Part shown: in pieces, positions 8,874-28,110 of the stretch
Position numbering within the stretch: position 1 is the first letter of the stretch
Layout of the letters: each line of letters starts with the position of its first letter
NCBI GenBank assembly: GCA_048938025.1
Contig: JBHLMP010000019.1
Coordinates: 1-57,922, forward strand
DNA: 57,922 nucleotides
Direction: 5' to 3'
Source: Promethearchaeota archaeon
Lineage (GTDB): Archaea > Asgardarchaeota > Lokiarchaeia > Sigyniarchaeales > SOKP01
Made by a program: the position numbers and the translations under genes
Notes under the pieces: generated by a model
Told to the model about the DNA's origin: nothing
Database searches by the model: none
What the model saw: only the letters and a program-made list of their open reading frames with translations

Positions 8874-8978
8874 TTTGGTGCGATTCTAACAGTTACAGAA
8901 GGAATTTCTGCTCAAAAAATGTATGTGAAATTTGGATTTAGAAAATATCCTTCATTTTATATTATAACAGATACTTAG
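8874..8978 (+). pseudogene. Remnant of a GNAT acetyltransferase C-terminus
   Basis: Start-less frame after TAA reads FGAILTVTEGISAQKMYVKFGFRKY..., matching the GNAT motif L.V...N.A..LY.K.GF. Confidence 0.5.
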
Positions 8979-9059
8979 AAATAGGATAAAAAAGAGTTAA
9001 AAACTTTTTTTTGAATCTTAGTGATACTTTTTAAAATAAAAACCATTTCTTTTTATTAC

Positions 9060-10364: not shown

Positions 10365-10379
10365 GAAATTTATTATTTT

Positions 10380-10820
10380 TTATAATTCTAAAACTTGAAG
10401 TCTTGAATATCCTTCTTTAATAAAATCATAATCAAGAAGTTCTATTTTTTCAGGTATAATTTTTAATATTAGTTTTCTTTTTCCTCGTACAGTTTTCTGA
10501 GCTTTTTGGAATTCTTCATCTCCTTCTTTTAAAAATATCAATCTTTCTTTCCCAGAAGCCGTAATCTGCATCCCTTGGATTTTTCCTTCGGATAATGGAG
10601 TATAGATGCCAATACTAATAATTGGATTTTTTTTAATATTCTTAACTTTTCTTCCAGGGGAAGGTCCTACATATATATTAAAACTATCTTTTTCTGTATA
10701 GAAATCCATAGGAGTTGCTCTCGGTATATTATCACTACAAGTACATAATACTAACACTTTTCTTTTATCCAAGAAATTTAGGATCTCACTTTTTAATTTA
10801 GCTTTAGGCATTTCACTCAT
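10380..10820 (-). CDS. Pyridoxamine 5'-phosphate oxidase-like FMN-binding split-barrel protein
   Basis: VLCTCSDNIPRATPM and RKVKNIKKNP motifs. Confidence 0.8.
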   Translation of the reverse strand: MSEMPKAKLKSEILNFLDKRKVLVLCTCSDNIPRATPMDFYTEKDSFNIYVGPSPGRKVKNIKKNPIISIGIYTPLSEGKIQGMQITASGKERLIFLKEGDEEFQKAQKTVRGKRKLILKIIPEKIELLDYDFIKEGYSRLQVLEL

Positions 10821-10953
10821 AAGAATTATCACGTTGAAATGTTATTATATGTTACTATCATTAAAAACATATAAACAAAATAAAGTTTAGAAAAACAATT
10901 CTAACTTCTGAATATTATATAGTTTTACTAAAAAACAAGAATTTAAAAAAGAG

Positions 10954-12117
10954 TTAAATTCCAACTACACTTATGGGCACAGAATCATTATCTGCATCTA
11001 TAGCTGCTTTCACATAGGGAGAAACTGGTCCATTTGCCACAACCATTATTTTTATCTTTGAGCCTAAGGCTGCATCCATACTTGTTCCAAATTTTAACTG
11101 AGCACTCTTAGGGATTTCATTTGAAATAGTCGAAATGACTTTATCTACTTTATCTAAAGATAAAGTATGATCACCTGTTACCGAAACTAAGCATCTCTTA
11201 ACTTGACTAGGATCTGGCTTCAAAAGTGGACTATTTAAAGCTAATTTTGACTTTTCAATTAAATCTGATTCATCTCCTAAAGATTCAGCTATTCCGATTA
11301 ACCCAGAAGGATATTTTTCTTTCCGTTCAAACACTCTTTTCACATCTGCGAAATCTATATTTACTAACCCACAATTATTAATTAAGTTCACAACTTCACC
11401 GATATTTCTTATTAACACTTCATCCATTATTTTAAAACCTGTAATCATAGGGATCTTTCCTACAATATGTAATAGATTATCGTTAGGGATTGTAATTAAT
11501 GTGTCAGAATGCTCTGCTAAATTTTTAAGACCAGAATTGGCTCTAATTAATCTTTGATCACCTTCAGATTTAAACGGAAGTGAACAGAATGTGACAACTA
11601 TACAATTATTTTTTTTTGCTTCTTGTGCTATAATAGGAGCTGCTCCTGTACCTGTCCCCCCACCTAAACCACAGGTTAGGAAGATAATATCAGCATTCAA
11701 TATTTTACGAATTCTTTCACGATCTTCTTCTGCAGCTTCAGCTCCAACGGAAGGATCATTTCCAGAACCTAATCCATTACATCTTTCTTTTCCAATTAAA
11801 ATTTTATGTTTTGCATTTGAATAGTATAAATCGTGAGCATCAGTATTAATATTTAGTGTTTCAGCATCGCTAATACCCATATCCTCTAATCGGGAAACCG
11901 TGTTGTTTCCAGCCCCCCCAACACCAACAACCATGGATTTAATCCTTAAAACCTTTACTAAGTCCGAAAGAAACTTATCGTCATCACAGATATTATCAGG
12001 ATTTGCATTTTGTTTATGAAAATTTTTTATTTCATTAAATCTTGACCTTACAGATAAACGATTTTGTGCTAAATCTGTTAAATCAAGTTGTTCCTCATCT
12101 GCCAATTTCATCAGCAT
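10954..12117 (-). CDS. ftsZ: Cell division GTPase FtsZ homologue
   Basis: GVGGAGNN, NTD, GLGSG, GLGGGTGTGAAP, PF..EG..R and T7 loop GLVNIDFADV. Confidence 0.95.
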   Translation of the reverse strand: MLMKLADEEQLDLTDLAQNRLSVRSRFNEIKNFHKQNANPDNICDDDKFLSDLVKVLRIKSMVVGVGGAGNNTVSRLEDMGISDAETLNINTDAHDLYYSNAKHKILIGKERCNGLGSGNDPSVGAEAAEEDRERIRKILNADIIFLTCGLGGGTGTGAAPIIAQEAKKNNCIVVTFCSLPFKSEGDQRLIRANSGLKNLAEHSDTLITIPNDNLLHIVGKIPMITGFKIMDEVLIRNIGEVVNLINNCGLVNIDFADVKRVFERKEKYPSGLIGIAESLGDESDLIEKSKLALNSPLLKPDPSQVKRCLVSVTGDHTLSLDKVDKVISTISNEIPKSAQLKFGTSMDAALGSKIKIMVVANGPVSPYVKAAIDADNDSVPISVVGI

Positions 12118-12389
12118 AAACCAAAGTTATTATAATACGAGAAAAATATTAGAATAATATATGATAGTAATACTTACATAATATGACAAATAGCCTCCCA
12201 AACTCTTATTAAATTACATTTTCACAATATTTTAATACAATATAATCATCAAATCAAAAAATCTGAAAAAACTAGTCGTAGTTTAATTATTTATAATCTT
12301 AATGTTCGTGTGAAATAAATGACATACCTTATTAAAAGAAAATTTATAAGTCTGAATTTTCATGAATATAGTGTTAAGGGTTTTAAAAT

Positions 12390-12632
12390 ATGGAAATTGA
12401 TAGATATTCTGAAAGTGATAAAAAAGCTGTAAGTAGCTCGGATCTGAAAGATGATTTGATCCAAGTTAGAGCTATTATCAGTTGCCCTACTTGTGATTAT
12501 AAGAAGAAATTTAAAAATCAGTTTCCACGAAGTCAAATGGAACTTTTCGTAGTCTCCGCTAAAGTATTCGACTTTATGACTTGCTCTAGATGTGGAAATT
12601 TACTTAAATTAGAGTTAGAATTCAATGTTTAA
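12390..12632 (+). CDS. Small zinc-ribbon protein
   Basis: CPTC...CSRC in 80 aa; divergent from ftsZ. Confidence 0.7.
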   Translation: MEIDRYSESDKKAVSSSDLKDDLIQVRAIISCPTCDYKKKFKNQFPRSQMELFVVSAKVFDFMTCSRCGNLLKLELEFNV

Positions 12633-12688
12633 TTATTAAAAATCCTTACCTGATTTTTTTTTTGAACTGATAAGTAAAATTTTTATAA

Positions 12689-13999
12689 TTATACTTCAAG
12701 TTTTATTTGACCGTAAGTACCTCCTCCTCCAGGAGTATACTCAATCTCATTATTTCTAAGTGCTTTTATTAGAGAAGCAATATTTTTATCGAAATTATCA
12801 ATTTTATTGATTGGTACATTGATTAAAATTTCAAATTCATTGCCAAGTTCATTAATTATTTTATTGTATTCATTTAAAACTGATTTACTTGTTGTGCTCT
12901 TTATTTTTTTAATGGAACGGATGATATCTATTAATGGAACAGCATTTATGTAATTAGGTCTATGATCTGGATGAATAGGTTTCTCATATGTCGAAATAAC
13001 ATCAATTCTTTCACTTACACCTAATTTTACTTTAAAATTTTTAGCTAATGCTTCTTTACAGGCGGGACAAACCATTCTATTTTTTGCTGCTTGCTCAATA
13101 TATTGATTTTTAGCTGCCTGTGGATTATTTGTGAAAATTGTTATGAAATTTTCTGTAATTGAATATTGATTAAATACATTCTGAACATTTTTTTTTGTTT
13201 TCCTAAATAGGATTCTCCTTCTACACTTATTGCAGAACATATTATAGTATTTTCCAAGCTTAGGATGTAGCCCTACATTTAATATAATCTTTCTATTTTC
13301 TTTTCTTTTAATTGCTAATAATATTTCTTCAAAAGAGGGTTTATCAATATCAAATTTATTAAATTCTCTACCTAAAGATCGAGGATCTTGTGAATGGGCA
13401 TCGCTATTACTTAAAAAGCTCACATTTTTTAAGCATTCTAACCTATCTGCAAGATCAGTATTAGCAGATAATCCTAATTCTATAAAAAATACTTTTTTGT
13501 ATGCATCTTGATAACAATCCTTAAGAGTATCAAATTTATTCTGCCGAAATATTGCTTTAAAAGGAGTAAAAGCATGTGCAGGACCGATTAAAGCCCCTTC
13601 TTCCGATATAATTTCAACCAATTCTGCGGGGGATAAATTAACCCTTGGGCGGCCTCCCCATTGATTTAAAATATTTTTCGAATAAGGTGCTAGTTTCTTT
13701 TGAATTTTCCTTACCATATCAAAACTTTCAAAAAAAACAACTTCATGAACACTTTCTTGATCTTCTATTTCTGTTTGAAGGATAAAATATACATCCTTAT
13801 AAGAATATGCCCCCTCCTTATTCTTTTCTAAATTTTGTTCCAAGTGATTTAACCAATCTGGCTGCAAGACGTCTCCTGTTCCTAAAATATTTAATCCTTT
13901 TTTTCTACAAGTTTTAACCATTGTATCTAAGCTTAATGATTTTGAGACTCCAATTGAATGTGGGGAATGAATATGTAAATCAGCGTTGTATATCTTCAT
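12689..13999 (-). CDS. Endonuclease Q family protein (PHP domain plus Zn finger)
   Basis: DLHIHS, GTGD, PAHAFTP, ELGLSA, NSDAHS, LGREFN, GKYY..C..C and PGGGGTYG. Confidence 0.9.
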   Translation of the reverse strand: MKIYNADLHIHSPHSIGVSKSLSLDTMVKTCRKKGLNILGTGDVLQPDWLNHLEQNLEKNKEGAYSYKDVYFILQTEIEDQESVHEVVFFESFDMVRKIQKKLAPYSKNILNQWGGRPRVNLSPAELVEIISEEGALIGPAHAFTPFKAIFRQNKFDTLKDCYQDAYKKVFFIELGLSANTDLADRLECLKNVSFLSNSDAHSQDPRSLGREFNKFDIDKPSFEEILLAIKRKENRKIILNVGLHPKLGKYYNMFCNKCRRRILFRKTKKNVQNVFNQYSITENFITIFTNNPQAAKNQYIEQAAKNRMVCPACKEALAKNFKVKLGVSERIDVISTYEKPIHPDHRPNYINAVPLIDIIRSIKKIKSTTSKSVLNEYNKIINELGNEFEILINVPINKIDNFDKNIASLIKALRNNEIEYTPGGGGTYGQIKLEV

Positions 14000-14019
14000 T
14001 GAAATATCTAGATTTTTAA

Positions 14020-15060
14020 TTATTTTATAATTAACATTTTATCATTAATTTGATCAGTTAATAATATCCGAAAATATTCTTCTTCATCTTGAAAATTAAC
14101 TTTCTCTAGTTTTCCCTCAACTAAAACAGTTTCACCATCTTTAGCCTGTTCACAAAATCGACCTCTAAATGAATCTATTTCATTAATATTTCTAAAATTA
14201 ATCTCATTGGAAATAAGTTGATTATCTAATACTTTCAAACATTTGATTTTATAAGAGCAAGGAGTAAAAATTGCATCTTTTGATTCTGTAATTTTTGCTT
14301 TTACCTTAAGCCTGCCATAATTCTTATATCTATAATCATAATAGCTTCCTTTCCAATCTTCAGGACTTTTTATATATCTTATAAAAAAGTCAATTCCCTG
14401 AAATTTTCCTTGATGTAGCTTTCTTTTTTCACTTCTCATGAAATCTTCAAAAGAGATACCTGATCCTCCAAATCTCCAATTATAATGAGTTCTAAATTCT
14501 TCTAAAGTATACGTTCTACATTTCTTTGATTCAATTAATATCTTTTTTAGTCTTTCTTGGAATTTCAAGCTCGTTTTAGTGCCATAAACTATAATATCTA
14601 TATCAGAATCCTCCTTATTCAATCCAACCATAGTAGAGCCAGAAATTCCTATTGAATTATCAGGAATTTCTCCTCTTGTAATGAAAAAATTACATAATTC
14701 TCTTGACTTCTTCTCATTATGATTTAATATCACTTTTTCTTTCAAAACTTTGAAGAAATGTCTGGGGGTGTATATATGCTTAATCTTATCATTTTCTACT
14801 CCTTGTAGTTCTAAATCCTGTTCCCTGGAAAAGAAAAGATAATTAGGGAATTTCTCTCTTAAAATTGAATATCTTTCATTAATATTATAGACTTTTTTAA
14901 AATGTATACCACTTTTTATCCTATCTCCCTCAGGATGTGGATAAAATCTTAAAAAACAGATTTTTCTGTCCTCAGGATGAGCTAAACCTTTAACATCAAA
15001 AAATAAATTATCTTTTTTTGTTTCTATATAATCTCCTTCAATAGGATCAACAATCCTCAT
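14020..15060 (-). CDS. Archaeal predicted nucleotidyltransferase
   Basis: EGDYIET...FDVKG..HP, GISGS...SDIDIIVYG and SFRGRFCEQA...GKLE. Confidence 0.8.
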   Translation of the reverse strand: MRIVDPIEGDYIETKKDNLFFDVKGLAHPEDRKICFLRFYPHPEGDRIKSGIHFKKVYNINERYSILREKFPNYLFFSREQDLELQGVENDKIKHIYTPRHFFKVLKEKVILNHNEKKSRELCNFFITRGEIPDNSIGISGSTMVGLNKEDSDIDIIVYGTKTSLKFQERLKKILIESKKCRTYTLEEFRTHYNWRFGGSGISFEDFMRSEKRKLHQGKFQGIDFFIRYIKSPEDWKGSYYDYRYKNYGRLKVKAKITESKDAIFTPCSYKIKCLKVLDNQLISNEINFRNINEIDSFRGRFCEQAKDGETVLVEGKLEKVNFQDEEEYFRILLTDQINDKMLIIK

Positions 15061-15080
15061 GAAATTCACTATATTTGTAA

Positions 15081-16118
15081 TTAATATTTTGAGGGTGTTT
15101 TTGTTTTAATATACGAAGGAGTTTTTGTTTTAATTGAAGGCTTTTTAGATTTAATTCTTTTTAGCTCTCTTTCAAATTCCTTTTTTTCATTTAGAAATCT
15201 CTCCTTATCTCTTTCTAACTTTTCTCTTTCCCGTTTTATCGTGCTTTTCTCATTACTTATCGTTGATTTTTCTTTTTCCAATTTTTTATTCTCGTTAATT
15301 AGTCTTCTAAGTTTTTCCTCTTGATCAGTAATTTTGCGTGTTAATGAGTAATATTGATCTTCTGCTTGAGGAACCTTTCTATTTAATTCTTTTAATCTTG
15401 CTTCCTGTTCCCCTTTTTTCCTTTCCAATGCGTTTATATCTCTTTCTACTTTATCCCTATACTTTTTCAGATCTACTTTTTTCTTATCAATTTCACGAGC
15501 TTTTAGATTTGAATCTTTTATTCTATGACGAGCTTTTTCTCTATCATCTTTCAGTTTTTGTTTTTCATCAGAAATTCGATTTTTTTCATCTGAAATCTCT
15601 CTCCTAAAGTTATCAATTTCTGTATTTAAATTATCCCTTTCTTTAGTTAAAGGCTTAATTTCATTCCTTAAATCCATTAATTTATCCTCTAAATCGTTAA
15701 TAGTTCTCTTTAAAGCACTTTCTCTTCTTTCCATGCCAGGTATTTTTGTTTTTATTCGTTTAATCCTTTCAAGATCATCTTGAATTCTTTTTAATTCTCT
15801 TTGTTCCTCATCCAAATGATGTTTTTTATCATCAATATCATTTTGTAAGTTAGTTATTTCATCTCTTAATTCATCACGGTTATTAGTTAGATTTCTTATC
15901 TCTAATTCAGAACGTTTTCTTTTCCTCTCAAGCTCTTTTATATTGTCATTATATCCTTCTATTTGTTTGAGAACATTTTCCCATTCATTCTTTTCTTTAC
16001 TTAACTTCTTTCTCTCTTCTCTAATTTTATTTAACAATTTCTTATCAGGTGTTAATTCTAAATAATCATCTGGTGCTTTTTCATGAATTTCATACTTAGG
16101 AGGTGTTTTATCTTTCAT
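15081..16118 (-). CDS. Long coiled-coil protein with KTP-containing head and tail
   Basis: About 290 aa of K/E/R-rich heptads; MKDKTPPKY start and (IKTKTPS)x2 end. Confidence 0.8.
   Translation of the reverse strand: MKDKTPPKYEIHEKAPDDYLELTPDKKLLNKIREERKKLSKEKNEWENVLKQIEGYNDNIKELERKRKRSELEIRNLTNNRDELRDEITNLQNDIDDKKHHLDEEQRELKRIQDDLERIKRIKTKIPGMERRESALKRTINDLEDKLMDLRNEIKPLTKERDNLNTEIDNFRREISDEKNRISDEKQKLKDDREKARHRIKDSNLKAREIDKKKVDLKKYRDKVERDINALERKKGEQEARLKELNRKVPQAEDQYYSLTRKITDQEEKLRRLINENKKLEKEKSTISNEKSTIKREREKLERDKERFLNEKKEFERELKRIKSKKPSIKTKTPSYIKTKTPSKY
15091..15134 (-). repeat. 24-bp-period tandem repeat encoding IKTKTPS twice
   Basis: GAGGGTGTTTTTGTTTTAAT (15091-15110) and GAAGGAGTTTTTGTTTTAAT (15115-15134). 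Confidence 0.8.
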
Positions 16119-16314
16119 ATTTATTCATTTTTCGTAAGGCTATATTTATTAAACTTAAGATGGGTTGATTAATTATAATTTTAATGTATTCTTACAAGAT
16201 AATTTATTAAAATCTATTTATATAGTATAATTACTATTATTTATATAAAATCATTCCAAATTTATAGTAAAAATAGATTCTAATTTAAAATCAACATTTT
16301 TAAAGGGAAAGGAA

Positions 16315-16698
16315 ATGGAACATGATGAAGAATTTGATGAGGATTTAGATGAGGAATTAGAATTTGATGAAGAATTAGAAGAGCCAAATTCTAAAACACC
16401 AGCAAAAGAAGTTACATCTAAAACTCCTATTACAAAAACTATACCAGAAGGAAAAAAGATTTCAGTATATTTTATGTCGACTATAGGACCAGGTGAGAAA
16501 AAACAGAAATTACTTGTAAATACAGGAAACAGTGTTGGAGATATTAAAGAAACTATAGCAAACCTATTTGGTTTAGATCCTGCTGATTTTCATTTATCTT
16601 CAGGTGGAGTTACAATGGATGAGAGTTCAACTTTAAATGATTATAACGTAGCTGATGGTGATGACATCCTTTTAATTCCAGCAAGTACTGCTGGTTAA
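16315..16698 (+). CDS. Ubiquitin-like modifier, paralogue 1 (acidic N-terminal arm, C-terminal STAG)
   Basis: Beta-grasp pattern SVGDIKETI...GVTMDESSTLNDYNVADGDDILLI resembles ubiquitin GKQLEDGRTLSDYNI; ends in Gly. Confidence 0.88.
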   Translation: MEHDEEFDEDLDEELEFDEELEEPNSKTPAKEVTSKTPITKTIPEGKKISVYFMSTIGPGEKKQKLLVNTGNSVGDIKETIANLFGLDPADFHLSSGGVTMDESSTLNDYNVADGDDILLIPASTAG

Positions 16699-16745
16699 AT
16701 CTATAAGAGAAAAATAAATATATCAAAAAATAAGATCCTCTTTTT

Positions 16746-17540
16746 TTAATCTTTTTTATTTCTTGAGGGAATCAGAGCGATTTCTTCATCATCATCAATA
16801 TCATAATCTTTTATTTGTGAGTTTTCATGTAATAATATCCCTCCAGAGGATAGAAGAAAATCTCCAAGATCATAATCAAATAAGATTCCTATTCTTTCTT
16901 TAACTATACTAATTAGTTCCATTTTATTGATTATAATTATATTTGTTTTTTCACCTGGCTCGACTAAAGATCTTACATAAACACGGATCTGATCTCTCAA
17001 TTCAATAGGATTTAAAGGGGGTGTATATAATATCTCCTCATCAGTTCTATCCCCGTTTTTCAATATATTTTCAATTAACATTTTTCTTTCTTTAGCATTA
17101 AAATATATCATTTCCCTGATAAACAAGATCTTATCTATTTTTGATAGCCTTAGAAGGTTTATTTTGTTTATTTCTTCCATACTAAATAATGAAAAAATAA
17201 ATCTGTTAATCATCTCCATATCTTTATAGGATTCATCTGATTCGACATAATCTTTTATTGAAGGCATTGTTTCAATATAATCTTCAATAATATCTATAGC
17301 TTTCTTCTTAATTACCTTTGGTTTTGCAAAATCTTTTTTTTCTTTTATTCTTTCATCTTGGATACTTTTAGATTGTATAACTGTATAGATGGTACTAGTG
17401 GATAGCACAGCAACACTACCAATAGTTAGAAAGAGAAATAAAGGAATACTTTCTATACGAAATAGGAAAAAAAGAATATAAACCAAAATAAAAAAACAAT
17501 AAAGAGTTATAACAATTAAAATATTATAATTTTTCTTCAT
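16746..17540 (-). CDS. Membrane-anchored protein with a C-terminal ubiquitin-like domain lacking terminal Gly
   Basis: Two N-terminal TM helices; last about 80 aa align with the neighbouring Ubls (PGEK, F.LSSGG, ENSQIKDYDI, LIP) but end SRNKKD. Confidence 0.8.
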   Translation of the reverse strand: MKKNYNILIVITLYCFFILVYILFFLFRIESIPLFLFLTIGSVAVLSTSTIYTVIQSKSIQDERIKEKKDFAKPKVIKKKAIDIIEDYIETMPSIKDYVESDESYKDMEMINRFIFSLFSMEEINKINLLRLSKIDKILFIREMIYFNAKERKMLIENILKNGDRTDEEILYTPPLNPIELRDQIRVYVRSLVEPGEKTNIIIINKMELISIVKERIGILFDYDLGDFLLSSGGILLHENSQIKDYDIDDDEEIALIPSRNKKD

Positions 17541-17637
17541 AATCTTTTAGCAAAGTTATTTTCTGAACTTCTAATATATAAGTTAAAATATAAATTCCAT
17601 TGGAATAAATTTGAAGTTTCTTTTATATTTATACACC

Positions 17638-18300
17638 TTAAATTAATCTTTTGATCTTAGAATATTTATCTAAGTCCAACTTAAATAAAATTCTATTTTT
17701 ATCTTTTTCAGTTTTTAGTAATTTCAGATTTTTTAAAATATTAACATATTTTTTAATAGTATTGTGATTTTTTTTTAATTTAGTTGCTATTTCTGTTATC
17801 CTAAATGCTTTATTTTCTTTCTTCATAAAATTAATTAATTTTTGAACGATACCTTTGTTTAAATAAAAGTAAAACTCGTCTAGTTCTGGATTTGAATCAA
17901 ATTTAAAGAAAATTCTATGATTGTTGATTTTTTTTGAACGTATAAATTGAAATTTTTCTAGACATGATAAATGCCATAAAATTTGATTACTTCCTATATT
18001 TAGAGCTTTCATTATTTCATTAATATTTGAGGGATTCCTTTTAATGTAATTAAAGATTTTATTTCTTTTTGGATGATCAATAATATTATTTTTCATCAAT
18101 CTAGTTCCGGGGATAATGACACGCCTTTTAATTAAATCTTTTAAGATTAACTCTATTGTATTTGCATTTATATTAGGATTATATCTTACCCTACTATTTA
18201 TAAATGGTATGATTTCTTTAATTGAGAAGAAAGTCTTTTTTGTTAAATACTCTCTTACTAATTCAAGAACAACAGATTCTGCACTATCCAGAATGCTCAT
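17638..18300 (-). CDS. Winged helix-turn-helix transcriptional regulator (tandem ArsR-like domains)
   Basis: R.KIFNYI..NP...EIMKAL...WHL..LEK and ITEIATKLKKNHNTIKKYV..L. Confidence 0.8.
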   Translation of the reverse strand: MSILDSAESVVLELVREYLTKKTFFSIKEIIPFINSRVRYNPNINANTIELILKDLIKRRVIIPGTRLMKNNIIDHPKRNKIFNYIKRNPSNINEIMKALNIGSNQILWHLSCLEKFQFIRSKKINNHRIFFKFDSNPELDEFYFYLNKGIVQKLINFMKKENKAFRITEIATKLKKNHNTIKKYVNILKNLKLLKTEKDKNRILFKLDLDKYSKIKRLI

Positions 18301-18582
18301 AAGCCTATACTTTCATTACGCTGATATATCTAGTTTTTATATTAAATATACTCTTTAGAGCAATATTTTATGCCTTATATATTAATAGATATTCATACAA
18401 TTTATAATATAATTTCTTAAGAAGATATAATAAGGTTCTTTTTATTTTTGATCAGATCTTGAAAAACTTCAAAATCATTCCAATGGGTTTTATAATATCT
18501 TTTTAATGCCATATTATCAAGTTTAAAAAAATGAAAAATTACAAAATTAAAAAAATAAAAAAAAAATATGGATGTGATGTAA

Positions 18583-18915
18583 ATGGGTTTTGATGAATTT
18601 GATGAGGATTTAGGAGGAGAAGAACCTGTAAAATCTAAAACTCCAGCAGCTAAAACTCCTTCAGCAGGAAAGAAATTAACTTTATATTTCATGTCAACTA
18701 TTGGTCCTGGTGAAAAGAAAGAAAAATTAATTGTGAATGATGGCAATCGTGTAAGTGATATTAAGCAAACGGTAGGAAATTTATTTGGACTTGATCCTAA
18801 TGAATTTCATTTATCATCTGGGGGAGTTACAATGGATGAAAATAGTCAATTAAGAGACTATAATGTAAGTGATGGAGACGATATTCTTTTGATCCCTGCG
18901 AGTACTGCTGGGTAA
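18583..18915 (+). CDS. Ubiquitin-like modifier, paralogue 2, first gene of the E1-E2-JAMM-E3 operon
   Basis: 65 of 82 residues identical to the paralogue 1 core by manual alignment; ends LIPASTAG. Confidence 0.9.
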   Translation: MGFDEFDEDLGGEEPVKSKTPAAKTPSAGKKLTLYFMSTIGPGEKKEKLIVNDGNRVSDIKQTVGNLFGLDPNEFHLSSGGVTMDENSQLRDYNVSDGDDILLIPASTAG

Positions 18916-18946
18916 ACTTATATAAAGTTCTTCACAAATTATAATA

Positions 18947-18984
18947 TGAGGGCATTAAGCCCTTCAATTTTTTTTTATTTTTTT
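18947..18984 (+). terminator. Hairpin plus T-tract between the Ubl and E1 genes
   Basis: AGGGC-ATTAA-GCCCT stem-loop (18949-18963) followed by T9 and a second T run. Confidence 0.55.
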
Positions 18985-18994
18985 ATAAATATTA

Positions 18995-20230
18995 ATGGTG
19001 TTAAAATTGGATAAGGATTCAGACTTTTTTGCAAAAGAATTATCAGTAAAAGAAAGAGATCTATATGATCGCCAGTTTCGTCTTGAGGGATGGTCCCAGA
19101 AATTGGTAAAAAACTCAAGAGTGTTAATTGTAGGTGTGGGGGGTTTAGGATGTGAAATTGCTAAAAACTTAGCTATGCTTGGTGTTGGTCACTTAGATCT
19201 CGTTGATTTAGATATTATTGAACATTCGAATTTGAACCGGCAAATTCTTTTTACAGAAGCGAAAATGGGAGAACCTAAAGCAATTGTTGCCACTAAAAAA
19301 CTAAGGCAAATTAATTCTAATATTATTATTAGAGGATATCATGCTTCACTAGAACGATTAGATCCTGCAATATATCAAGCAGCTGATGTTGTAATTGGGG
19401 GTCTTGATTCTATGAATGCACGACTTAACTTAAACGCTCAATGTATACGATTTAAAAAACCACTAGTAGATGGAGGAGTATCTGGTTATCATGGTCATAT
19501 ATACACTATCTTTCCCTATCAAAATGCTTGCTATGAATGCAATCCATTACCAGTAGGAGAAAGTGATGAAATGGCTGCTTGTACAGTGGTTGGAATTCCC
19601 CGAAAAAGGATTCATTGCCTTTTTAAAGGAGATATGGCATTTAAAGAAAAATTTGACAGAGATCCTAATCCAAAAGATATAAATGATATTAAATTCATTC
19701 AAAATGTTGCAAATGAATTAGTGAATAAACATAATTTCCTACCTGAATACACAGAAGATGATATTGTGAAACTAATTGATAGACATGACCCTGGAATAAT
19801 AACTATAAACGCAATTATTTCCGCTTTACAATCACATGAAGCGGTAAAAATTTTACACTGGAAAAAAGGTCACAGAGGATTAGGTGAGCCGGTTAAAAGT
19901 TATGTGATTTTCAATGCAATGACAATGAAATTTTACCATATTGAAAAACAGAGGAATCCTGAATGTGCTCAGTGTGGTAAACATGTCCGAAGAGTATCTA
20001 TAAAGTTGAGGGTTCAATCACCTTGTATAAATATAATTAAAGTATTAGAGAAGAATGGATATAAATTGGATCCTGATTCTGAGCCAATTCTCACCTTACT
20101 GGATTTCAATGATATCAAGATGGTAGATTTAGAAAAGAATCCAATTGAAAACGGTTTAAGAAATTATGAATTTCTGACAGCTGCAGGGTTTAAAGATGGA
20201 GAAATTTTTGTAACCTTAAAATTAAAATAG
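18995..20230 (+). CDS. Ubiquitin-activating enzyme E1 (ThiF family, Uba2/Uba3-like)
   Basis: YDRQ, GVGGLG, D.D.IEHSNLNRQ, CYEC...CAQC Zn pairs, catalytic ACTVVGIPR...HC and a C-terminal extension. Confidence 0.93.
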   Translation: MVLKLDKDSDFFAKELSVKERDLYDRQFRLEGWSQKLVKNSRVLIVGVGGLGCEIAKNLAMLGVGHLDLVDLDIIEHSNLNRQILFTEAKMGEPKAIVATKKLRQINSNIIIRGYHASLERLDPAIYQAADVVIGGLDSMNARLNLNAQCIRFKKPLVDGGVSGYHGHIYTIFPYQNACYECNPLPVGESDEMAACTVVGIPRKRIHCLFKGDMAFKEKFDRDPNPKDINDIKFIQNVANELVNKHNFLPEYTEDDIVKLIDRHDPGIITINAIISALQSHEAVKILHWKKGHRGLGEPVKSYVIFNAMTMKFYHIEKQRNPECAQCGKHVRRVSIKLRVQSPCINIIKVLEKNGYKLDPDSEPILTLLDFNDIKMVDLEKNPIENGLRNYEFLTAAGFKDGEIFVTLKLK

Positions 20231-20334
20231 AATTTTAATCAAAAAATATTTTTTATAATAATTTATTGAAATAAACAATTATTTAAAGAAAAATTTTCAA
20301 TATTAAATTAAAGAAAATAAAAAGGGTTGAGAAA

Positions 20335-20862
20335 ATGAGTATAAGAAGCAGTCGTATTTCACAAGATTTTGCAGGATTAAAAAAAATGCTTAAAGACAGT
20401 ACCATTGTTCAATTAAAACCTTTTAATCCTAATAAGAAAAGTATAGATCATCTAGCTATTGCCATTAAAGGACCTAAGGGTACTGCATACGCAGGTGGAC
20501 TTTTTAAATTAGAAATGAAATTTCCTACTCAGTATCCTAAACAACCACCATTCGTTAGAATGCATACTCCAATTTGGCATCCGAATTTTTGGCCAAAACC
20601 GAGTGAGTATAAAGGACAGAGAAATATTTGTCTAGCTTTAGTGGATCCCTCTTTGATTGGTAAAAAAGGTGGATGGAGCCCATCAAAAACTGCTGTAACG
20701 GTTGTTCAAGCAATAACTGCTATGTTAAACACACGTGGTAAGTATGTAAATCCAACAGATGTCTTTAATAAAAAAGCAGCAATAGAAATGATGAAAAATC
20801 CTAAATTTTTCGAAAAAAAAGTCAAAAGTTTAGTTAAAAAGTATGCTAATAAGAAATGGTGA
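20335..20862 (+). CDS. Ubiquitin-conjugating enzyme E2
   Basis: GP.GT.Y.GG.F, FP..YP..PP, WHPN, catalytic ICL, WSPS and N..AA. Confidence 0.95.
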   Translation: MSIRSSRISQDFAGLKKMLKDSTIVQLKPFNPNKKSIDHLAIAIKGPKGTAYAGGLFKLEMKFPTQYPKQPPFVRMHTPIWHPNFWPKPSEYKGQRNICLALVDPSLIGKKGGWSPSKTAVTVVQAITAMLNTRGKYVNPTDVFNKKAAIEMMKNPKFFEKKVKSLVKKYANKKW

Positions 20863-20869
20863 TATTTTA

Positions 20870-21679
20870 ATGAATTTTGAAAATGATAAGACAAATTCTA
20901 TCAGAGAAGTAATAAAAAATAAAATAAAGGAGAAAATTAAAAAAGAATTGCTTGAAGAGATATACACTGAATTAAAATCAGAAGAAGAATTGATAGATGA
21001 AATAACTTCTGAGCTTATCCAAAAAAAGCCTTCTGAATATACAGAAACAATTAGTATCAAACATGAGAATACTCCAACAGAGCCAGAAATAGCATATGTT
21101 AAACATAATGAGACTAAAGCCAATTTAATTATAACAGTTAAAGCTATTCTTAAGATAGCAAGCCATTCCTTAAAATATGCTCACTCTAAGATCCCAAGAA
21201 AGGATTGGGTTGAAGTAATAGGGTTACTTGCTGGTAAATTAGATATATCTGGGCAAATTCTTCATATAGAAGATGCTTATCCAATGGGCCATGGTACAGC
21301 AGTTTATGCTGAAATTAAAGATTATAAAAATTATGTGAGAGCTTTTAACGATATTAAGAGAAATAAATTATTCATCTGTGGATGGTATCATTCTCATCCA
21401 TCTTATGGGTGTTTTATGTCTAATGAAGATATAGGAACTCAGGCGAGATATCAAAAATTATGGGATAAGGCTATTGCTCTTGTGATAGATCCATATCAAA
21501 TTGATGGTACTTCATTAGGATTTGAGATTTATCGTGCAAATATCAGAACAAAAAAATGGTTTTCTTTACCGTATAATATAAAAGGGCATTTAGATGTTCG
21601 AATGTTGCCTGAAATCTTGGCATTTATGAATCCTATTATTGAGGGGAAACCTGTTTACTTGGAATATGATGAAGATTAA
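20870..21679 (+). CDS. JAMM/MPN+ metalloprotease, Rpn11/CSN5-like deconjugase
   Basis: EVIGLL, GWYHSHPSYGCFMS.ED and ALVIDP; ATG 20870 follows a GGTGA that contains the E2 stop codon. Confidence 0.92.
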   Translation: MNFENDKTNSIREVIKNKIKEKIKKELLEEIYTELKSEEELIDEITSELIQKKPSEYTETISIKHENTPTEPEIAYVKHNETKANLIITVKAILKIASHSLKYAHSKIPRKDWVEVIGLLAGKLDISGQILHIEDAYPMGHGTAVYAEIKDYKNYVRAFNDIKRNKLFICGWYHSHPSYGCFMSNEDIGTQARYQKLWDKAIALVIDPYQIDGTSLGFEIYRANIRTKKWFSLPYNIKGHLDVRMLPEILAFMNPIIEGKPVYLEYDED

Positions 21680-21708
21680 ATTCTTTAATATGTGGTGATG
21701 CTTAAACC

Positions 21709-22878
21709 GTGGTGAAAACTAAAGCTGTTGCGATATCATTAATTATCTTTTTAATCATAGGCATAATCCATGGTGCTATTTTAGACTCATTTAATGTATT
21801 TGTAACTTGGTTATTAATTGGTTTATGGATAATATTGACTATTAAAATTTTAGGAAATGTAAAACGTCACCGCGAATTTAATTCACCACACAATACTGCC
21901 TTTTTTGTCATAATCCCTTTATTTATCGGAATTTTTTACTCTATTTGGGGTTATTTTACAGGTATTCTGGGTGAAAACCTTCTAGAGGGTTCAGATCTAT
22001 ATTTTAGTTGGTGGAGTATCATTTTTGGATTTCCATTTGTATTATATGGCGCTCATTCTTTATATCGTTGTTTTAAGAAATATAGTGTTATTTATTTTGG
22101 AACGAAATCAATAAAAGCTAGGTTATTTGGATATATTTTAGCCTTTATTGTTCTTCTTTTTATAATATTTTATTGGATTATTTTTTATACTGTTATTGAA
22201 TTTTATAATTTTCCATTAATCCCGCTTCACTTCTCTGTAGATCTTAACCTTTTATTATTATTCATAATTACAATATTGATATTAATTGTTTTTGGATTTA
22301 TTAGTTCACAAAGACCATTGCCAACATTAACTCGTGATTATATAGCACAACGTACTAGGAGAATAAATTCATTAACATCTCCTACTGCATTATCTTCGCC
22401 TAGAAGACAAAGACAAACTGTAAGTACAACAATTAGATCAACACCAACATCTAGAAATATATCTCGAACAACAAGATCAAGTACTCAATCATCAAGAACA
22501 ACACCAACTTCACATAGACAAACAAATAGAACAAGAACAACAAAAACTACCCAAACTAGAAGTGTAAAACCAGCATCAAAAAGTCGAGATCTAAATAGAT
22601 ATAAGCCAATAGGATCATATCTATCACAGGACGATTTTAAATGTATTTTTTGTTTTAAATTACCAAAACTTCCTGAGGATAGAGGGAGAGGGATAATCTT
22701 GTGCCCACATTGTAGATACCCAGCACATGCAGATGAATTTAAAGATTGGTTACGAACCTCAAATCTGTGTTCACGATGTAGTACCCCTATTCCATCTACC
22801 TTTAAAAGTAATCCTAGGATAATTAGTGTAAAGGATTATTTAATTATCTATAACCATTTTTTAAGAAAAAAGAACTAA
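21709..22878 (+). CDS. Multi-pass membrane protein with C-terminal RING-variant domain (putative E3 ligase)
   Basis: About 6 TM helices, an R/S/T-rich linker, then CIFC-x16-CPHC-x4-H-x2-E...W...CSRC. Confidence 0.8.
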   Translation: MVKTKAVAISLIIFLIIGIIHGAILDSFNVFVTWLLIGLWIILTIKILGNVKRHREFNSPHNTAFFVIIPLFIGIFYSIWGYFTGILGENLLEGSDLYFSWWSIIFGFPFVLYGAHSLYRCFKKYSVIYFGTKSIKARLFGYILAFIVLLFIIFYWIIFYTVIEFYNFPLIPLHFSVDLNLLLLFIITILILIVFGFISSQRPLPTLTRDYIAQRTRRINSLTSPTALSSPRRQRQTVSTTIRSTPTSRNISRTTRSSTQSSRTTPTSHRQTNRTRTTKTTQTRSVKPASKSRDLNRYKPIGSYLSQDDFKCIFCFKLPKLPEDRGRGIILCPHCRYPAHADEFKDWLRTSNLCSRCSTPIPSTFKSNPRIISVKDYLIIYNHFLRKKN

Positions 22879-22909
22879 CTGAATGGAAAATTTGTAAGAA
22901 ATTAAATAA

Positions 22910-23869
22910 TTAACTTTTCAATTTTAGGTTTTCTTTTAATTCTCCAACTGTAGTTTTTAATTCAGCATATACGTTATGTGGATGAATAGATTCAAAGCTT
23001 TCTATTTTAAATTTTATTTTAAAGTTATCTTCAATATTTGGAAAATCTCTTAAAATGAAATTCTGTGCCATCTCTCGAATGACATCCTCAGAAAATAATG
23101 GTTTCAAATGAGCACTTCTAACTAATTCCGCTTCTTCTGGTCTTTTTAAAACAGATTGTATTTTTCCACTCATAGATCGCTCTATAACATCTATAATATC
23201 TAAAACGTCTATTTTATGATTAGTTAAATCCTTTATTTGAATTATAATTGTACCAATTGATCTTTGATTATGTGAGGAAAAGGGAAGGATATTTAATAAC
23301 TTCCTGAGGTCTTCTTCTGAAACATCAATATCCTGTCTAGATTTAACAACTTGTTCCGCATACTCCAAAGAAAGTTCTTTAGCGCAAGGACAAACTGTCA
23401 TTCCTACTGCGCTCGCGCCAATAAAATAATTATAATCTATATAACCCAAATCATCTCGACTTGCTTTTACAAAGGAACTAATATTATATGATTTTTGAAT
23501 AATTCTTTCATCATTTTCTCTGACTTGAACTACAATTTTTCCCTCTAATTTAACTTCTGCTTTTGAAGTATAAGGGTGGCGTTCTAATAATTTTTTGACA
23601 ATTCTATCTCCGACAAGCTCAATAGTTGGTGTAGGTTTGAAAATTACTTCATTAATAACTTCTTCTATAGTCTCTGAAGTTCGAGACATATGTATTCCAC
23701 GTTGTTCAGCAGGAAGATTAATTAATGCAGATATTTTAGGATAAAAAGAATATCTTTTATTCTCTTGAACTATCTCTACTTTTTTTTCCAATTCCACAAT
23801 CCCAACCTTATCTATTGGGATATCTATTCTCGAATCAGAATCTTGTAAATCTTTTTTAAATTTATTAAT
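22910..23869 (-). CDS. mptA: GTP cyclohydrolase MptA (FolE2 family); probable ATT start at 23869
   Basis: RGIHMSR, GMTVCPCA, SHNQR, LKR..E, F.EDV.R and ESIH.H; the conserved DLQ...IDKVGI lies upstream of the called GTG at 23797. Confidence 0.92.
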   Translation of the reverse strand: MNKFKKDLQDSDSRIDIPIDKVGIVELEKKVEIVQENKRYSFYPKISALINLPAEQRGIHMSRTSETIEEVINEVIFKPTPTIELVGDRIVKKLLERHPYTSKAEVKLEGKIVVQVRENDERIIQKSYNISSFVKASRDDLGYIDYNYFIGASAVGMTVCPCAKELSLEYAEQVVKSRQDIDVSEEDLRKLLNILPFSSHNQRSIGTIIIQIKDLTNHKIDVLDIIDVIERSMSGKIQSVLKRPEEAELVRSAHLKPLFSEDVIREMAQNFILRDFPNIEDNFKIKFKIESFESIHPHNVYAELKTTVGELKENLKLKS

Positions 23870-23974
23870 ATTGAGTCACCAGTAGGAAAAATTAATTTTT
23901 TTATGTTCTATTCTTTAAAAGATTATATAAAATATAAAATATATTTCAATAAAATTTACATTTACTAAGATTTA

Positions 23975-25144
23975 ATGGCAAATAAAAATTTATTCAGCAA
24001 ATATGCTTTAATTGGAGAAAATTTAGATTTAAGACAAAATGTAAATTTAGATATTAATCAAAATGGAAAAATTATAGATCTCTCTTATGAAATTATTAAT
24101 AAAGATTTAGAACTTCTACTAGATGACTCACCTACCTTATTGGTTCCAGGGTTTATTAATTCTCATGTCCATATCGGAGATAGTTTTGCTAAAGAGTTAG
24201 GGTTTAATAAAGAGTTAGAGAACATAGTTGCCACACCATTTGGTCTTAAACATAAATTATTAAGACAAACCCCTGAAGGTATTAAAATTCAAGGTATTCA
24301 AAATGCTGTTTTAGAAATGCTTTCAAATGGTATTACTTTTTTCATTGATTTTAGAGAGGGAGGTATAGAAGGAATAAATCTTTTAAAAAAAGCACTTACT
24401 GATAGTGCAATTAATTATTTAATCTTGGGGAGATTTATGGATGAAAATGAAATAGAATCTGTTTTTGATTTAGCAGACGGAGTTGGATTATCTAGTTATA
24501 AGCAAATAAATGCAACAAATAAAAGATTTGTATTATCTGCTAAAGAAGAATTTAAAAAAATCATTGCTTGTCACTGTGCAGAAAAAATTCGTAATCCTAA
24601 TCTAATAAAAGAAATGTTTAATGATAATTTAGTAGATATCATTATTCATGGGACAAAATTTAATAAAAATGATTTAGAGAAGTTAATAATAAATAATAAA
24701 TCTCTTGTTTTATGTCCTCGTTGTAATGGATATTTTGGTGTCGGATTTCCCCCTATCAGCGAGATATTAAGATTAAAAATTCCAATATCATTAGGTACAG
24801 ATAATCTAATGGTAAATAACACTGATCTATTTGAGGAGATACGATATTTTTATCGGATTTCACGAATTTTATGCAGTCATGATAAACAACTTAAATTTAC
24901 ATCAAAGGATTTAATGAAAATGGTCACCATTAACGCTGCAAAAAATTTTAATCTTGATAAAGAATATGGTTCAATTTCAAATGGTAAGTTTGCTGATTTT
25001 TTTTTAATTGATCTTTGCGCTCCAAATTTATTTTCTTCCAAATTAGATTTTAATAATATTTACGATATAATTACTCAAAGAGTAAAATCAGAAAATATAA
25101 AAAAAATATATATTAAAGGAGAACTGATATTTGAAAGAAATTGA
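23975..25144 (+). CDS. Amidohydrolase superfamily metal-dependent deaminase
   Basis: PGFINSHVHIGDS, HCAE, IHG, CPRCN, LGTDN and TINAA. Confidence 0.88.
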   Translation: MANKNLFSKYALIGENLDLRQNVNLDINQNGKIIDLSYEIINKDLELLLDDSPTLLVPGFINSHVHIGDSFAKELGFNKELENIVATPFGLKHKLLRQTPEGIKIQGIQNAVLEMLSNGITFFIDFREGGIEGINLLKKALTDSAINYLILGRFMDENEIESVFDLADGVGLSSYKQINATNKRFVLSAKEEFKKIIACHCAEKIRNPNLIKEMFNDNLVDIIIHGTKFNKNDLEKLIINNKSLVLCPRCNGYFGVGFPPISEILRLKIPISLGTDNLMVNNTDLFEEIRYFYRISRILCSHDKQLKFTSKDLMKMVTINAAKNFNLDKEYGSISNGKFADFFLIDLCAPNLFSSKLDFNNIYDIITQRVKSENIKKIYIKGELIFERN

Positions 25145-25802
25145 TAAACCTTATGTTATTTTAAGTGTTGCAATGACTATTGATGGAAAAATAGCGTCAA
25201 AAGCAGGAGATCCTAATTTATCTGATGAGGAAGATTGGAAAGAAGTGCATAAACTTAGGACTCAGGTAGATGGAATTATCGTTGGGAAAAATACAATATT
25301 AAGAGATAATCCTAAACTTCATATAAAATTCTTTGAACATAATGGTTATTATAGAATTGTTGTTGATAGTAATCTTTCAATACCTATTGATTCAAACGTA
25401 ATCATATTTAAGCCAAACATATATCCTACGATAATATGTACTACAGAAAATGCATCTCTAGAAAGAATTAAAGATTTTGAATCTAAAGGAGTGAAAATTT
25501 TAAAGTCTGGCAAAGGTAAGAGAGTAAATATTTCAAGTTTTATGCCTCTTCTCTATAATTTAGGAATTCAAAAACTTTTATTAGAGGGAGGTGGTACTTT
25601 AAATTGGAGTTTTATTGAAAACGATTTAATTGATGAGATAAGATTGACAATTGCTCCGTGGATTGTTGGAGGAAAAGATGCTATAAGCTTAGTAGAAGGC
25701 GAGGGTTTTGAAAAAATGATTCAAGCGCCTAGATTTAAATTGCTTAATATTAATAATAGAGATAATTATGTTGTTTTAAATTACAAAAGGAGCGATAAAT
25801 GA
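25131..25802 (+). CDS. arfC: 2,5-diamino-6-ribosylamino-4(3H)-pyrimidinone 5'-phosphate reductase (RibD C-terminal type)
   Basis: AMTIDGKIA, VHKLR, VG.NT...DNP.L, LLEGGGTLN and DEI...IAP; no deaminase domain. Confidence 0.9.
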   Translation: MKEIDKPYVILSVAMTIDGKIASKAGDPNLSDEEDWKEVHKLRTQVDGIIVGKNTILRDNPKLHIKFFEHNGYYRIVVDSNLSIPIDSNVIIFKPNIYPTIICTTENASLERIKDFESKGVKILKSGKGKRVNISSFMPLLYNLGIQKLLLEGGGTLNWSFIENDLIDEIRLTIAPWIVGGKDAISLVEGEGFEKMIQAPRFKLLNINNRDNYVVLNYKRSDK

Positions 25803-28032: not shown

Positions 28033-28110
28033 GTTAATTTAGCTAATTTACTAAAAATTCCAAAACCAAATAATGCTCAACGTAGAGTCTTACATGAAAT
28101 ATTTGATTAG

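Follow-up and report, generated by a model that had tools for sequence, protein, structure and literature searches.

Asgard ubiquitin systems serve as a reference point for the origin of eukaryotic protein tagging, and the modifiers of those studied so far end, as described in the accessible portions of the reports, in Gly-Gly plus a propeptide; the Helarchaeial ubiquitin, for example, ends in Gly-Gly followed by Ser-Pro-Lys-Asn in the available text of 10.1101/2023.07.25.550441. The operon of Caldiarchaeum subterraneum, as set out in the available parts of PMC5654768 and PMC6043591, clusters the genes for a ubiquitin-like protein (Ubl) called CsUb, an activating enzyme (E1), a conjugating enzyme (E2), a small RING finger protein and the protease CsRpn11. 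Here we describe a cluster from Promethearchaeota archaeon (assembly GCA_048938025.1; GTDB lineage Archaea; Asgardarchaeota; Lokiarchaeia; Sigyniarchaeales; SOKP01), found on contig JBHLMP010000019.1, positions 1..57,922 of the forward strand, a stretch of 57,922 nucleotides that we call the window. Its central gene encodes Ubl1, a real, strongly conserved and widespread Asgard ubiquitin-family modifier that ends in Ala-Gly and is encoded beside a eukaryote-like E1 and E2, an Rpn11-like JAMM metalloprotease, and a membrane zinc-finger protein. We put at roughly 70% the probability that Ubl1 is a conjugatable modifier with a ubiquitin-like tail whose penultimate Gly has become fixed as Ala, one that would pass through a cycle of E1, E2 and a membrane-bound ligase (E3) and be removed by the JAMM enzyme; both the conjugation and the cycle are inferred from homology and gene order.

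A search of full-text literature, which took in neither supplements nor the first genome papers on Lokiarchaeum and the Asgard archaea, returned no description of an Asgard modifier ending in Ala-Gly or of an N-terminal arm such as that of Ubl1, and the available text of PMC5654768, PMC6043591, PMC9192718, PMC11354881, 10.1101/2023.07.25.550441 and 10.1101/2020.10.19.343400 makes no mention of an Ala-Gly Asgard modifier. The gene family may be listed without comment in the original genome papers.

The Ala-Gly terminus of Ubl1 and its relatives

The features of the cluster are collected in Table 1. The open reading frame (ORF) of Ubl1 has the C-terminal sequence ...DDILLIPASTAG, followed directly by TAA, and its start codon is supported by the finding that 87 of the 120 nearest homologs are exactly 110 residues long. 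The paralog Ubl2 shares 76% identity with Ubl1 over 95 residues, with the last nine identical; its 17 additional residues all lie within the arm, and in syntenic loci its position is likewise occupied by a gene. Both proteins score above the cutoff of 25.4 bits for the Pfam ubiquitin model PF00240 (27.6 bits for Ubl1, 29.2 bits for Ubl2). An AlphaFold2 model of Ubl1, computed with 30 family members in the alignment, has a beta-grasp fold across residues 31-105, in the order strand-strand-helix-strand-short helix-strand, with strand 1 beginning at residue 31 and a predicted local distance difference test score (pLDDT) of about 90. An earlier, sequence-only reading of the window had reported that both Ubls end LLIPASTAG-stop with no di-Gly and no propeptide, and had given their arms a length of 28-45 residues; the ORF sequences bear out the first claim, and the start of strand 1, taken together with the 17-residue longer paralog, fits the second.

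Table 1. Coordinates of the modifier genes, their parts and the surrounding features, numbered along the window
Feature	Position	Strand	Basis
Ubl1, ubiquitin-family modifier, 110 residues, LLIPASTAG-stop	18583..18915	+	ORF, Pfam, AlphaFold2 model, Foldseek
Arm of Ubl1, residues 1-30: M-x-F-D-E-F-D-E-D-L motif, then P-V-K-S-K-T-P...K-T-P	18583..18672	+	pLDDT, frequencies in 87 homologs
Ala109-Gly110-stop of Ubl1, candidate reactive C-terminus, aligned to ubiquitin G75-G76	18907..18915	+	hhalign register
GC hairpin plus T-run, terminator-like, between Ubl1 stop and E1 start	18948..18974	+	consensus match only
E1, ThiF-fold, 411 residues, separate catalytic-Cys segment and C-terminal extension	18995..20230	+	Pfam ThiF 4e-60
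E2, UBC-fold, 175 residues, HPN 82-84, Cys99	20335..20862	+	Pfam UQ_con 2e-25 (89.6 bits)
JAMM/MPN+ metalloprotease, Rpn11-like, E124 H183 H185 S193 D196	20843..21679	+	Pfam JAB 6e-14
Multi-pass membrane protein, Ser/Thr/Arg-rich linker, C-terminal zinc finger; putative RING-like E3	21709..22878	+	ligand pattern
Tandem winged-helix (ArsR/HrcA-like) protein, divergent from Ubl1	17638..18300	-	profile matches
Membrane protein with C-terminal Ubl domain, ends ...ALIPSRNKKD	16746..17540	-	ORF, Pfam, synteny
Ubl2, paralog, 127 residues, LLIPASTAG end, longer and more acidic arm with two SKTP motifs	16315..16698	+	ORF, Pfam
Coiled-coil protein, extreme C-terminus with two K-T-K-T-P-S motifs	15081..16118	-	sequence
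Pol-beta-type nucleotidyltransferase-domain protein, syntenic	14020..15069	-	Pfam NTP_transf_2 2e-5

Alignment of the family core to eukaryotic ubiquitin repeats by hhalign gave a probability of 94.8 (E 5e-8) and set I104 on V70 of ubiquitin. By extension, P105-A106-S107-T108-A109-G110 corresponds to ubiquitin 71-76, with A109 in the place of G75 and G110 in that of G76. The sequence-only reading had taken the I-P-x4-G spacing of the tail as UFM1-like; because that spacing equals ubiquitin's own six-residue tail with Gly75 changed to Ala, it is no evidence for UFM1, and the claim fails also on the profile results and on the enzymes described below. Among 30 family members compared with Pfam at E <= 1, 29 matched the ubiquitin model and 24, more weakly, Rad60-SLD (13.3 bits for Ubl1, below the cutoff of 23.8; E 3.3e-5 for the best family member), and none matched UFM1, ATG8, ATG12 or Urm1. 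Pfam does hold a UFM1 model.

Structure comparison points the same way. Foldseek ranks three chains of Caldiarchaeum ubiquitin first (E about 6e-8 to 2e-7, 22-23% identity), ahead of ubiquitin variants, ISG15, NEDD8 and SUMO1. In VIA-align, a search independent of Foldseek that treats differences of up to one Z unit as ties, the best scores were those of ISG15 (Z 14.2, root-mean-square deviation 1.7, 77 residues aligned) and a ubiquitin variant (Z 14.0, deviation 2.5, 78 residues aligned); ISG15, ubiquitin, the Dsk2 UBL and Hub1 together span Z 14.2 to 13.0, with SUMO at 12.3-11.8. Neither program shows UFM1 in its 50 rows, an absence from a list that amounts to no exclusion. Its profile matches, tail register and predicted fold make the modifier a member of the ubiquitin family. 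By the profile results, the tail register and the enzymes described below, it is no relative of UFM1, and its likeness to SUMO consists in having an arm.

Residues A109 and G110 are invariant in the family alignment, and in Ubl1 the Gly stands directly before the stop codon, giving the exposed C-terminal Gly of conjugatable (type I) Ubls. A word-indexed protein search with Ubl1 returned 898 matches, of which the best 120, all above 80% identity, were inspected; 113 end in AG and the other seven in AG plus 2-4 residues. An exhaustive search of 50%-identity representatives gave 248 matches at E <= 0.001, and among the 150 listed, 41 have a tail of the form [LIVM][LIVM]P-x-[ST]-x-AG, every one with Ala before Gly (18 stop at AG, 23 continue for 1-6 residues). 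When one genome per species was scanned and 80 of 148 loci kept, all 128 matching gene ends were AG and none was GG, with 108 stopping directly after AG and 20 carrying 1-7 more residues. Across these 120, 41 and 128 ends no GG terminus occurs, and AG is always at the stop or no more than seven residues from it, a constancy beyond chance; the AG-GF end of one member labelled Helarchaeota is ambiguous. The family thus differs from the di-Gly modifiers ubiquitin, NEDD8, SUMO and the SAMPs, which have Gly-Gly at the mature C-terminus. The codons for Ala109 in 140 ends (a few counted twice, as loci overlap) are GCT in 71, GCG in 35, GCA in 30 and GCC in 4, and since a single substitution would turn any of them into a Gly codon, the penultimate Ala is being held by selection.

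Extensions past the Ala-Gly pair occur in 12 of 54 E1-adjacent orthologs (KA, KLI, YF, RLI, N or LN) and in 8 of 49 paralogs in the upstream position; all 25 orphan copies lack them. Two ORFs, P0121 (372 residues) and P0122 (250 residues), contain three and two head-to-tail arm-plus-core units, respectively, a layout like that of polyubiquitin, with units that end HSTAG, FSTAG or HSQAG, that is, in AG or a close variant. Both need confirmation, because they lie on metagenome contigs of about 1.2 kb. At loci L087 and L088, which belong to two distant genomes, separate genes of the Ala-Gly type stand in tandem. From the tailed and tandem forms it follows that a protease cutting after Ala-Gly must exist somewhere in the family, and the Rpn11-like JAMM enzyme is the obvious candidate for both maturation and deconjugation. 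The sequence-only reading had reasoned that a modifier made mature leaves JAMM as a deconjugase and not a maturase; that reasoning suits this genome, where the propeptide is missing, but it is not general, as the tails (12/54, 8/49 and 23/41) and the tandem ORFs attest.

The Ubl also occurs at the extreme C-terminus of fusion proteins, mostly ending exactly in AG (P0135, P0406-P0420 and P0422, of 562-602 residues; P0146, P0153 and P0424; P0400). The Ubl is joined to HerA-like ATPases (17 of the 34 matches listed), to proteins with CDC48_N plus vWA, and to a Roadblock-domain protein. The last position of the Ubl in these fusions, and their AG ends, fit a C-terminus that needs to stay free. One further candidate, P0396 (534 residues), was rejected as a Ubl-E1 fusion; it is a frameshift artifact of a metagenome contig that reads through the intergenic hairpin into E1 with loss of the Ubl tail, and because of this frame error it provides no Rosetta-stone link.

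These results bear on the idea that the protein is a Ubl adaptor, binding through its beta-grasp surface and arm without being conjugated, whose Ala-Gly end is a relic. The modifier does lack di-Gly, its conserved arm motifs resemble docking sites, and the same cluster encodes a membrane protein, kept in synteny, whose Ubl domain has 41% identity to the Ubl1 core and should be non-conjugatable, since it has no terminal Gly. A relic, however, would not be expected to stay invariant phylum-wide in spite of synonymous codon turnover, nor to be followed at once by the stop in 108 of 128 ends; the tandem copies, like the tails, which are short and variable, imply that this very bond is processed, and the Ubl is always last in fusion proteins. 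We regard a purely adaptor role as unlikely, and prefer to see in the Ala-Gly end the site of conjugation.

Any such conjugates would escape a common assay. The last Arg or Lys of Ubl1, read from its sequence, is R91, from which trypsin would leave a remnant of 19 residues, and a K-epsilon-GG workflow would for that reason miss the modifier, just as the sequence-only reading had predicted for standard di-Gly proteomics.

Spread of the family and linkage to E1, E2 and JAMM genes

Of 400 scanned genomes from the phylum, 193 have a match to the family at E <= 1e-8, including 119 of the 134 genomes in the source genome's own taxonomic family. Six taxonomic families outside the source class also encode it (25/31, 9/12, 18/22, 2/2, 4/5 and 1/1 genomes), and many other families show none. 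The diverged members carry the submitter labels Hodarchaeales, Helarchaeota and Sigynarchaeota, and public annotation of homologs reads "ubiquitin-like domain-containing protein" or "hypothetical protein". Being both widespread and highly conserved, the family is probably important to the cell.

In the 80 loci retained from the species scan, neighbors in the same gene order as in the window include E1 (55 loci), E2 (50), JAMM (45) and the zinc-finger protein (43), together with the winged-helix (51), coiled-coil (45) and nucleotidyltransferase (43) proteins; several of the absences are contig ends. The E1 gene starts no more than 400 nt from the end of the Ubl gene in 54 cases. In five genomes from five taxonomic families outside the source class, an orthologous E1 directly follows the Ubl in five of five, with 43-65% identity over 304-424 aligned residues (two of these matches are cut by locus ends), and E2 comes next wherever the flank reaches. 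This recurrent adjacency is the main evidence that E1 and modifier work together; it is short of proof, but it suggests that the adjacent E1 would activate the modifier. The cluster is 80-95% identical across many genomes, as befits a conserved core locus. In locus L034, from a complete chromosome record, only a 91-residue stretch of E1 was matched after the Ubl, and E2, JAMM and the zinc-finger protein were unmatched with no contig end to account for it; a masked stretch or a rearrangement may be responsible.

The E1 gene of the window begins 80 bp downstream of Ubl1. The terminator-like hairpin and T-run in the interval, one of four such sites found in the region against 2.6 expected, might permit transcription of the modifier in excess of its enzymes. 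The best relatives of the E1 in PDB are UBA2 (3e-38), UBA1 (8e-36) and UBA3 (6e-32), catalytic subunits of the E1s for SUMO, ubiquitin and NEDD8, the gap between UBA2 and UBA1 being too small to carry meaning, with UBA5 reaching only 5e-15. Its C196 aligns with C173 of human UBA2, which we take to be the catalytic cysteine, in a conserved ...C-T-x5-P-x4-H-C segment, and C179, C182, C324 and C327 are invariant. The E2 matches UBC15, UBE2T, UBE2R and UBC9 in PDB, with E values between 1e-15 and 1e-13. The JAMM gene overlaps that of E2 by 20 nt and encodes an intact E...HxH...S..D motif; its best PDB match is the Caldiarchaeum Rpn11 homolog (1.5e-17), followed by RPN11, CSN5 and AMSH.

Such enzymes leave little room for a UFM1-like system, in which a single-Gly modifier would be served by a UBA5-type E1 and a UFC1-type E2. 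That reading would account for the single terminal Gly after a small residue and for the I-P-x4-G spacing, but the spacing is that of ubiquitin itself, none of 30 members matches the UFM1 model, the E1 is much farther from UBA5 (5e-15) than from UBA2 (3e-38) and has a UBA2-type catalytic-Cys segment, and the E2 is a UQ_con protein with HPN. Neither a UBA5-type E1 nor a UFC1-type E2 was found in the cluster, and we consider this explanation hardly credible.

A sulfur carrier of the MoaD, ThiS or SAMP kind, or a component of an anti-virus operon of the type of CBASS (cyclic oligonucleotide-based antiphage signaling system) or Bil, is very improbable as well. The E1 also matches MoeB/ThiF models, CBASS E1-E2 profiles match it at 4e-16 over its adenylation domain only, and the nucleotidyltransferase gene that keeps synteny, whose product has no PDB sequence match, would suit a defense system. 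Against this, only 1 of 30 family members matches ThiS; an E2, a JAMM enzyme and a zinc-finger protein are all present; the Ubl, E2, JAMM and zinc-finger proteins have no match in the 2023 PADLOC library, which may lack Bil models; and a core locus conserved at 80-95% identity across genomes is unlike the variable islands in which defense genes are found.

The membrane zinc-finger protein is the putative RING-like E3 of the cluster. Its candidate ligands C312, C315, C332, C335, H340, C354 and C357 are invariant in 12 orthologs. Matches of this protein to RING profiles all fall below threshold, and Foldseek, run with a low-confidence AlphaFold2 model (mean pLDDT 52.9), returned no match at E <= 0.001, the weak rows being rich in RING and U-box domains.

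The N-terminal arm and its shared motif

Residues 1-26 of Ubl1 have pLDDT below 50, a low confidence that suggests disorder without proving it and that would give Ubl1 a flexible arm of the kind found in the SUMO family. The arm is bipartite, with an acidic segment at residues 1-14 (seven D/E) and a segment rich in Lys, Pro, Thr and Ala at residues 15-31 (five K, three P). Among the 87 homologs of exactly 110 residues, the mean frequency of the top residue is 0.88 at positions 1-14 and 0.90 at positions 15-30, compared with 0.92 in the core, and S18, K19, T20 and P21 each reach 1.00. Both arm motifs recur in distant genomes of other classes and in every unit of the tandem forms. Where the sequence-only reading saw a SUMO-like disordered arm, therefore, the low confidence and likely disorder stand, but this is no generic floppy tail, having two fixed motifs and conservation near that of the core. 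We propose that the conserved arm plays a part in how the modifier works.

The motif K[ST]KTP is rare in this genome: ORFs of at least 80 residues contain it five times, where composition predicts 1.6, and this locus accounts for three of those. The remaining two, on contigs C7 and C53 (the latter probably a spurious ORF), are unrelated; the C7 protein is presumably Sua5/YrdC-like. Of 29 orthologs of the coiled-coil protein, detected by filter in related loci, 27 carry one to four copies of the motif at the extreme C-terminus, and of the other two, one is truncated where its contig stops and the second has S-K-T-T. A linear motif common to the arm and to a syntenic protein, and varying in copy number, suggests a common docking or acceptor site. 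We speculate that K-S-K-T-P is most simply a recognition site or the site of an acceptor lysine, in which case chains could form and the coiled-coil protein could be a partner or substrate.

A more elaborate proposal treats the modifier as a SUMO-like, pan-Asgard Ala-Gly paralog of ubiquitin, whose E2 or membrane E3 would read K[ST]KTP as acceptor, build chains on the arm, and tag the coiled-coil protein as a dedicated cytoskeleton-like partner at the membrane, with the HerA-like, vWA and Roadblock fusions conjugated whole. The resemblance to SUMO, superficial as it is, hints at motif-directed action; the proposal as a whole is possible but doubtful. If true, it would mean that several specialized Ubl pathways, with distinct tails guarding against cross-reaction, already existed in Asgard archaea.

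Parallel families, the proposed cycle and known systems

Besides the Ala-Gly family, the assembly (3.52 Mb, 29% G+C) encodes two or more other families of ubiquitin-like proteins. One is found on contigs C13, C22 and C76, each of which encodes a Ubl of 87-88 residues that ends ...VIGG plus 3-4 residues and has no arm. On C13 (12665..16219) the set is complete, with genes for JAMM, a short E1, E2 and a membrane zinc-finger protein beside the Ubl; on C22 (82..3583) the E1 is truncated at the beginning of the contig and a JAMM gene is not seen; on C76 (23547..26291) a JAMM gene adjoins and the E2 frame is broken by TAA. A further E2 stands beside a 530-residue E1 on C20. The other family is represented on C33, at about 19493..19750 (locus L001, 1489..1746, minus strand), by an 85-codon frame that ends ...MATQAGG and scores higher against the Pfam ubiquitin model than any other in the genome (33.6 bits). 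This frame has no ATG, GTG or TTG start, a GTG stands next to a run of five A, shifted from the frame by a single base, and homologs begin MIKITQYRF or MTQYRF; either an ATT start or a homopolymer error would explain this. A search for the AGG family gave 195 matches, and the 120 listed end in AGG plus 0-1 residue and include a protein of Candidatus Lokiarchaeum ossiferum.

The Ala-Gly family has no BLAST similarity to the VIGG type (hhalign probability 3.7), whereas the AGG family is aligned with it at a probability of 79.8. A quick tree built by maximum likelihood (68 rows, 80 columns), which included ubiquitin repeats and the other Ubls of this genome and has several long branches, placed each of the four groups on one side of a branch. 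The split that sets Ala-Gly plus AGG against eukaryotic ubiquitin plus VIGG has an SH-aLRT (Shimodaira-Hasegawa-like approximate likelihood ratio test) value of 96, and the Ala-Gly group alone has 49. By this limited test, the Ala-Gly family is not nested among GG-ending orthologs, having a GG-ending family as sister or neighbor, and is not the Asgard Ubl nearest to eukaryotic ubiquitin. The sequence-only reading was right, then, to see a distinct class of Ubl, a conserved family with an invariant Ala-Gly end, separate from the GG-ending Ubls of the same genome. Its further claim, that this class is relevant to the origin of eukaryotic Ubl families, may hold; the quick tree groups the family with the Lokiarchaeial AGG Ubl and not with eukaryotic ubiquitin.

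The kinship with the AGG family raises another interpretation, in which the adjacent E1 and E2 serve the C33 protein mainly or in addition, and the Ala-Gly proteins act as regulators or competitors. The C33 Ubl has that top ubiquitin score of 33.6 bits and, in this genome, no neighboring E1 or E2; tree (SH-aLRT 96) and profile alignment (79.8) put it with the Ala-Gly family, and its tail reads like STAG with one more Gly. Gene order, however, links this E1 to the Ala-Gly modifier and not to its GG-ending counterpart, in 54 close cases and all five distant genomes; the genome has other E1/E2 pairs without an assigned modifier, such as that on C20; and an invariant terminal Gly at the stop is hard to explain in a protein that is no E1 substrate. 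We judge this interpretation improbable.

In the conjugation cycle that we favor, Ubl1 would be translated ready to use in this genome. E1 would adenylate Gly110 and take the modifier onto Cys196, from which it would pass to Cys99 of the UBC-type E2; the membrane zinc-finger protein would act as E3, steering it to lysines of membrane targets; and the Rpn11-like JAMM enzyme would remove it. In the tailed and tandem relatives, the same protease would also cut after Ala-Gly for maturation.

Several observations weigh against this cycle. The genome encodes other E1s, other E2s and two other Ubl families, and for that reason the pairing of enzymes with modifier is read from adjacency. Orphan extra copies with no E1 in reach make up 25 of the 80 loci. 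The E3 assignment draws on a ligand pattern and sub-threshold matches only, and the motif as acceptor is speculation. Substitutions of Gly75 impair the handling of eukaryotic ubiquitin, and an Ala-Gly tail would therefore need co-adapted enzymes. The penultimate Ala also slows JAMM cleavage in Caldiarchaeum: according to the accessible text of PMC6043591, CsRpn11 still cuts ubiquitin with the penultimate Gly changed to Ala, which speaks for the cycle, but does so much more slowly, and it does not cut the Val variant at all. Given this slow cleavage, the JAMM enzyme of the present cluster is probably adapted to Ala.

One genome thus holds at least three Ubl families distinguishable by tail, the first ending in Ala-Gly, the second in AGG with at most one residue more, and the third in VIGG followed by 3-4 residues. 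The Ala-Gly and VIGG families each stand beside enzymes of their own. An Ala fixed beside the reactive Gly offers a simple, testable candidate for keeping such parallel pathways apart, the same problem that eukaryotes solve for ubiquitin, NEDD8 and SUMO. The motif common to arm and coiled-coil protein, for its part, provides a concrete first hypothesis of a substrate.

Among known systems, that of UFM1, UBA5 and UFC1 resembles this one in its lone C-terminal Gly preceded by a small residue; in E1, E2 and sequence profile alike the likeness fails. In the comparison with SUMO, the arm is predicted to be flexible and contains lysines, UBA2 is the best PDB match of the E1, Rad60-SLD is touched by 24 of 30 members, and SUMO structures align at Z 11.8-12.3; on the other side, the ubiquitin profile outscores Rad60-SLD for Ubl1 by 27.6 to 13.3 bits, the arm here is strongly conserved, and SUMO ends in Gly-Gly plus a propeptide. 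With eukaryotic ubiquitin and NEDD8, and their E1s UBA1 and UBA3, the cluster shares the fold, the six-residue tail, a distinct catalytic-Cys segment in E1, and the HPN-Cys arrangement of E2. The modifier differs from ubiquitin in the changes Gly75 to Ala and Arg72 to Ala, the latter position being Ala in NEDD8 also, in its N-terminal arm, in its single-chain 411-residue E1, and in a core identity of about 22%.

The Caldiarchaeum operon, so far as the accessible text of PMC5654768 and PMC6043591 describes it, clusters the same set of genes, the E3 being putative here. CsUb chains are the top three Foldseek matches of the modifier, at 22% identity for CsUb, and CsRpn11 is the best PDB match of the JAMM enzyme. 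CsUb, however, has Gly-Gly and a nine-residue propeptide that Rpn11 must remove, with no long arm described in that text, whereas Ubl1 has Ala-Gly, no propeptide, and a conserved arm of 30 residues; a pro-form of the Caldiarchaeum type, with Gly-Gly and propeptide, is not seen here, and the presence of residues past the Gly varies within the Ala-Gly family. The E3 candidate of Caldiarchaeum is a small RING finger protein, and that of the present cluster a multi-pass membrane protein. The other Asgard Ubls, both the VIGG type of C13, C22 and C76 and the ESCRT-linked Helarchaeial ubiquitin in the available text of 10.1101/2023.07.25.550441, likewise belong to operons with E1, E2, JAMM and a membrane zinc-finger protein. 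Those modifiers have 87-88 residues, end in Gly-Gly plus 3-4 residues and lack an arm, in contrast to the armed Ala-Gly family described here.

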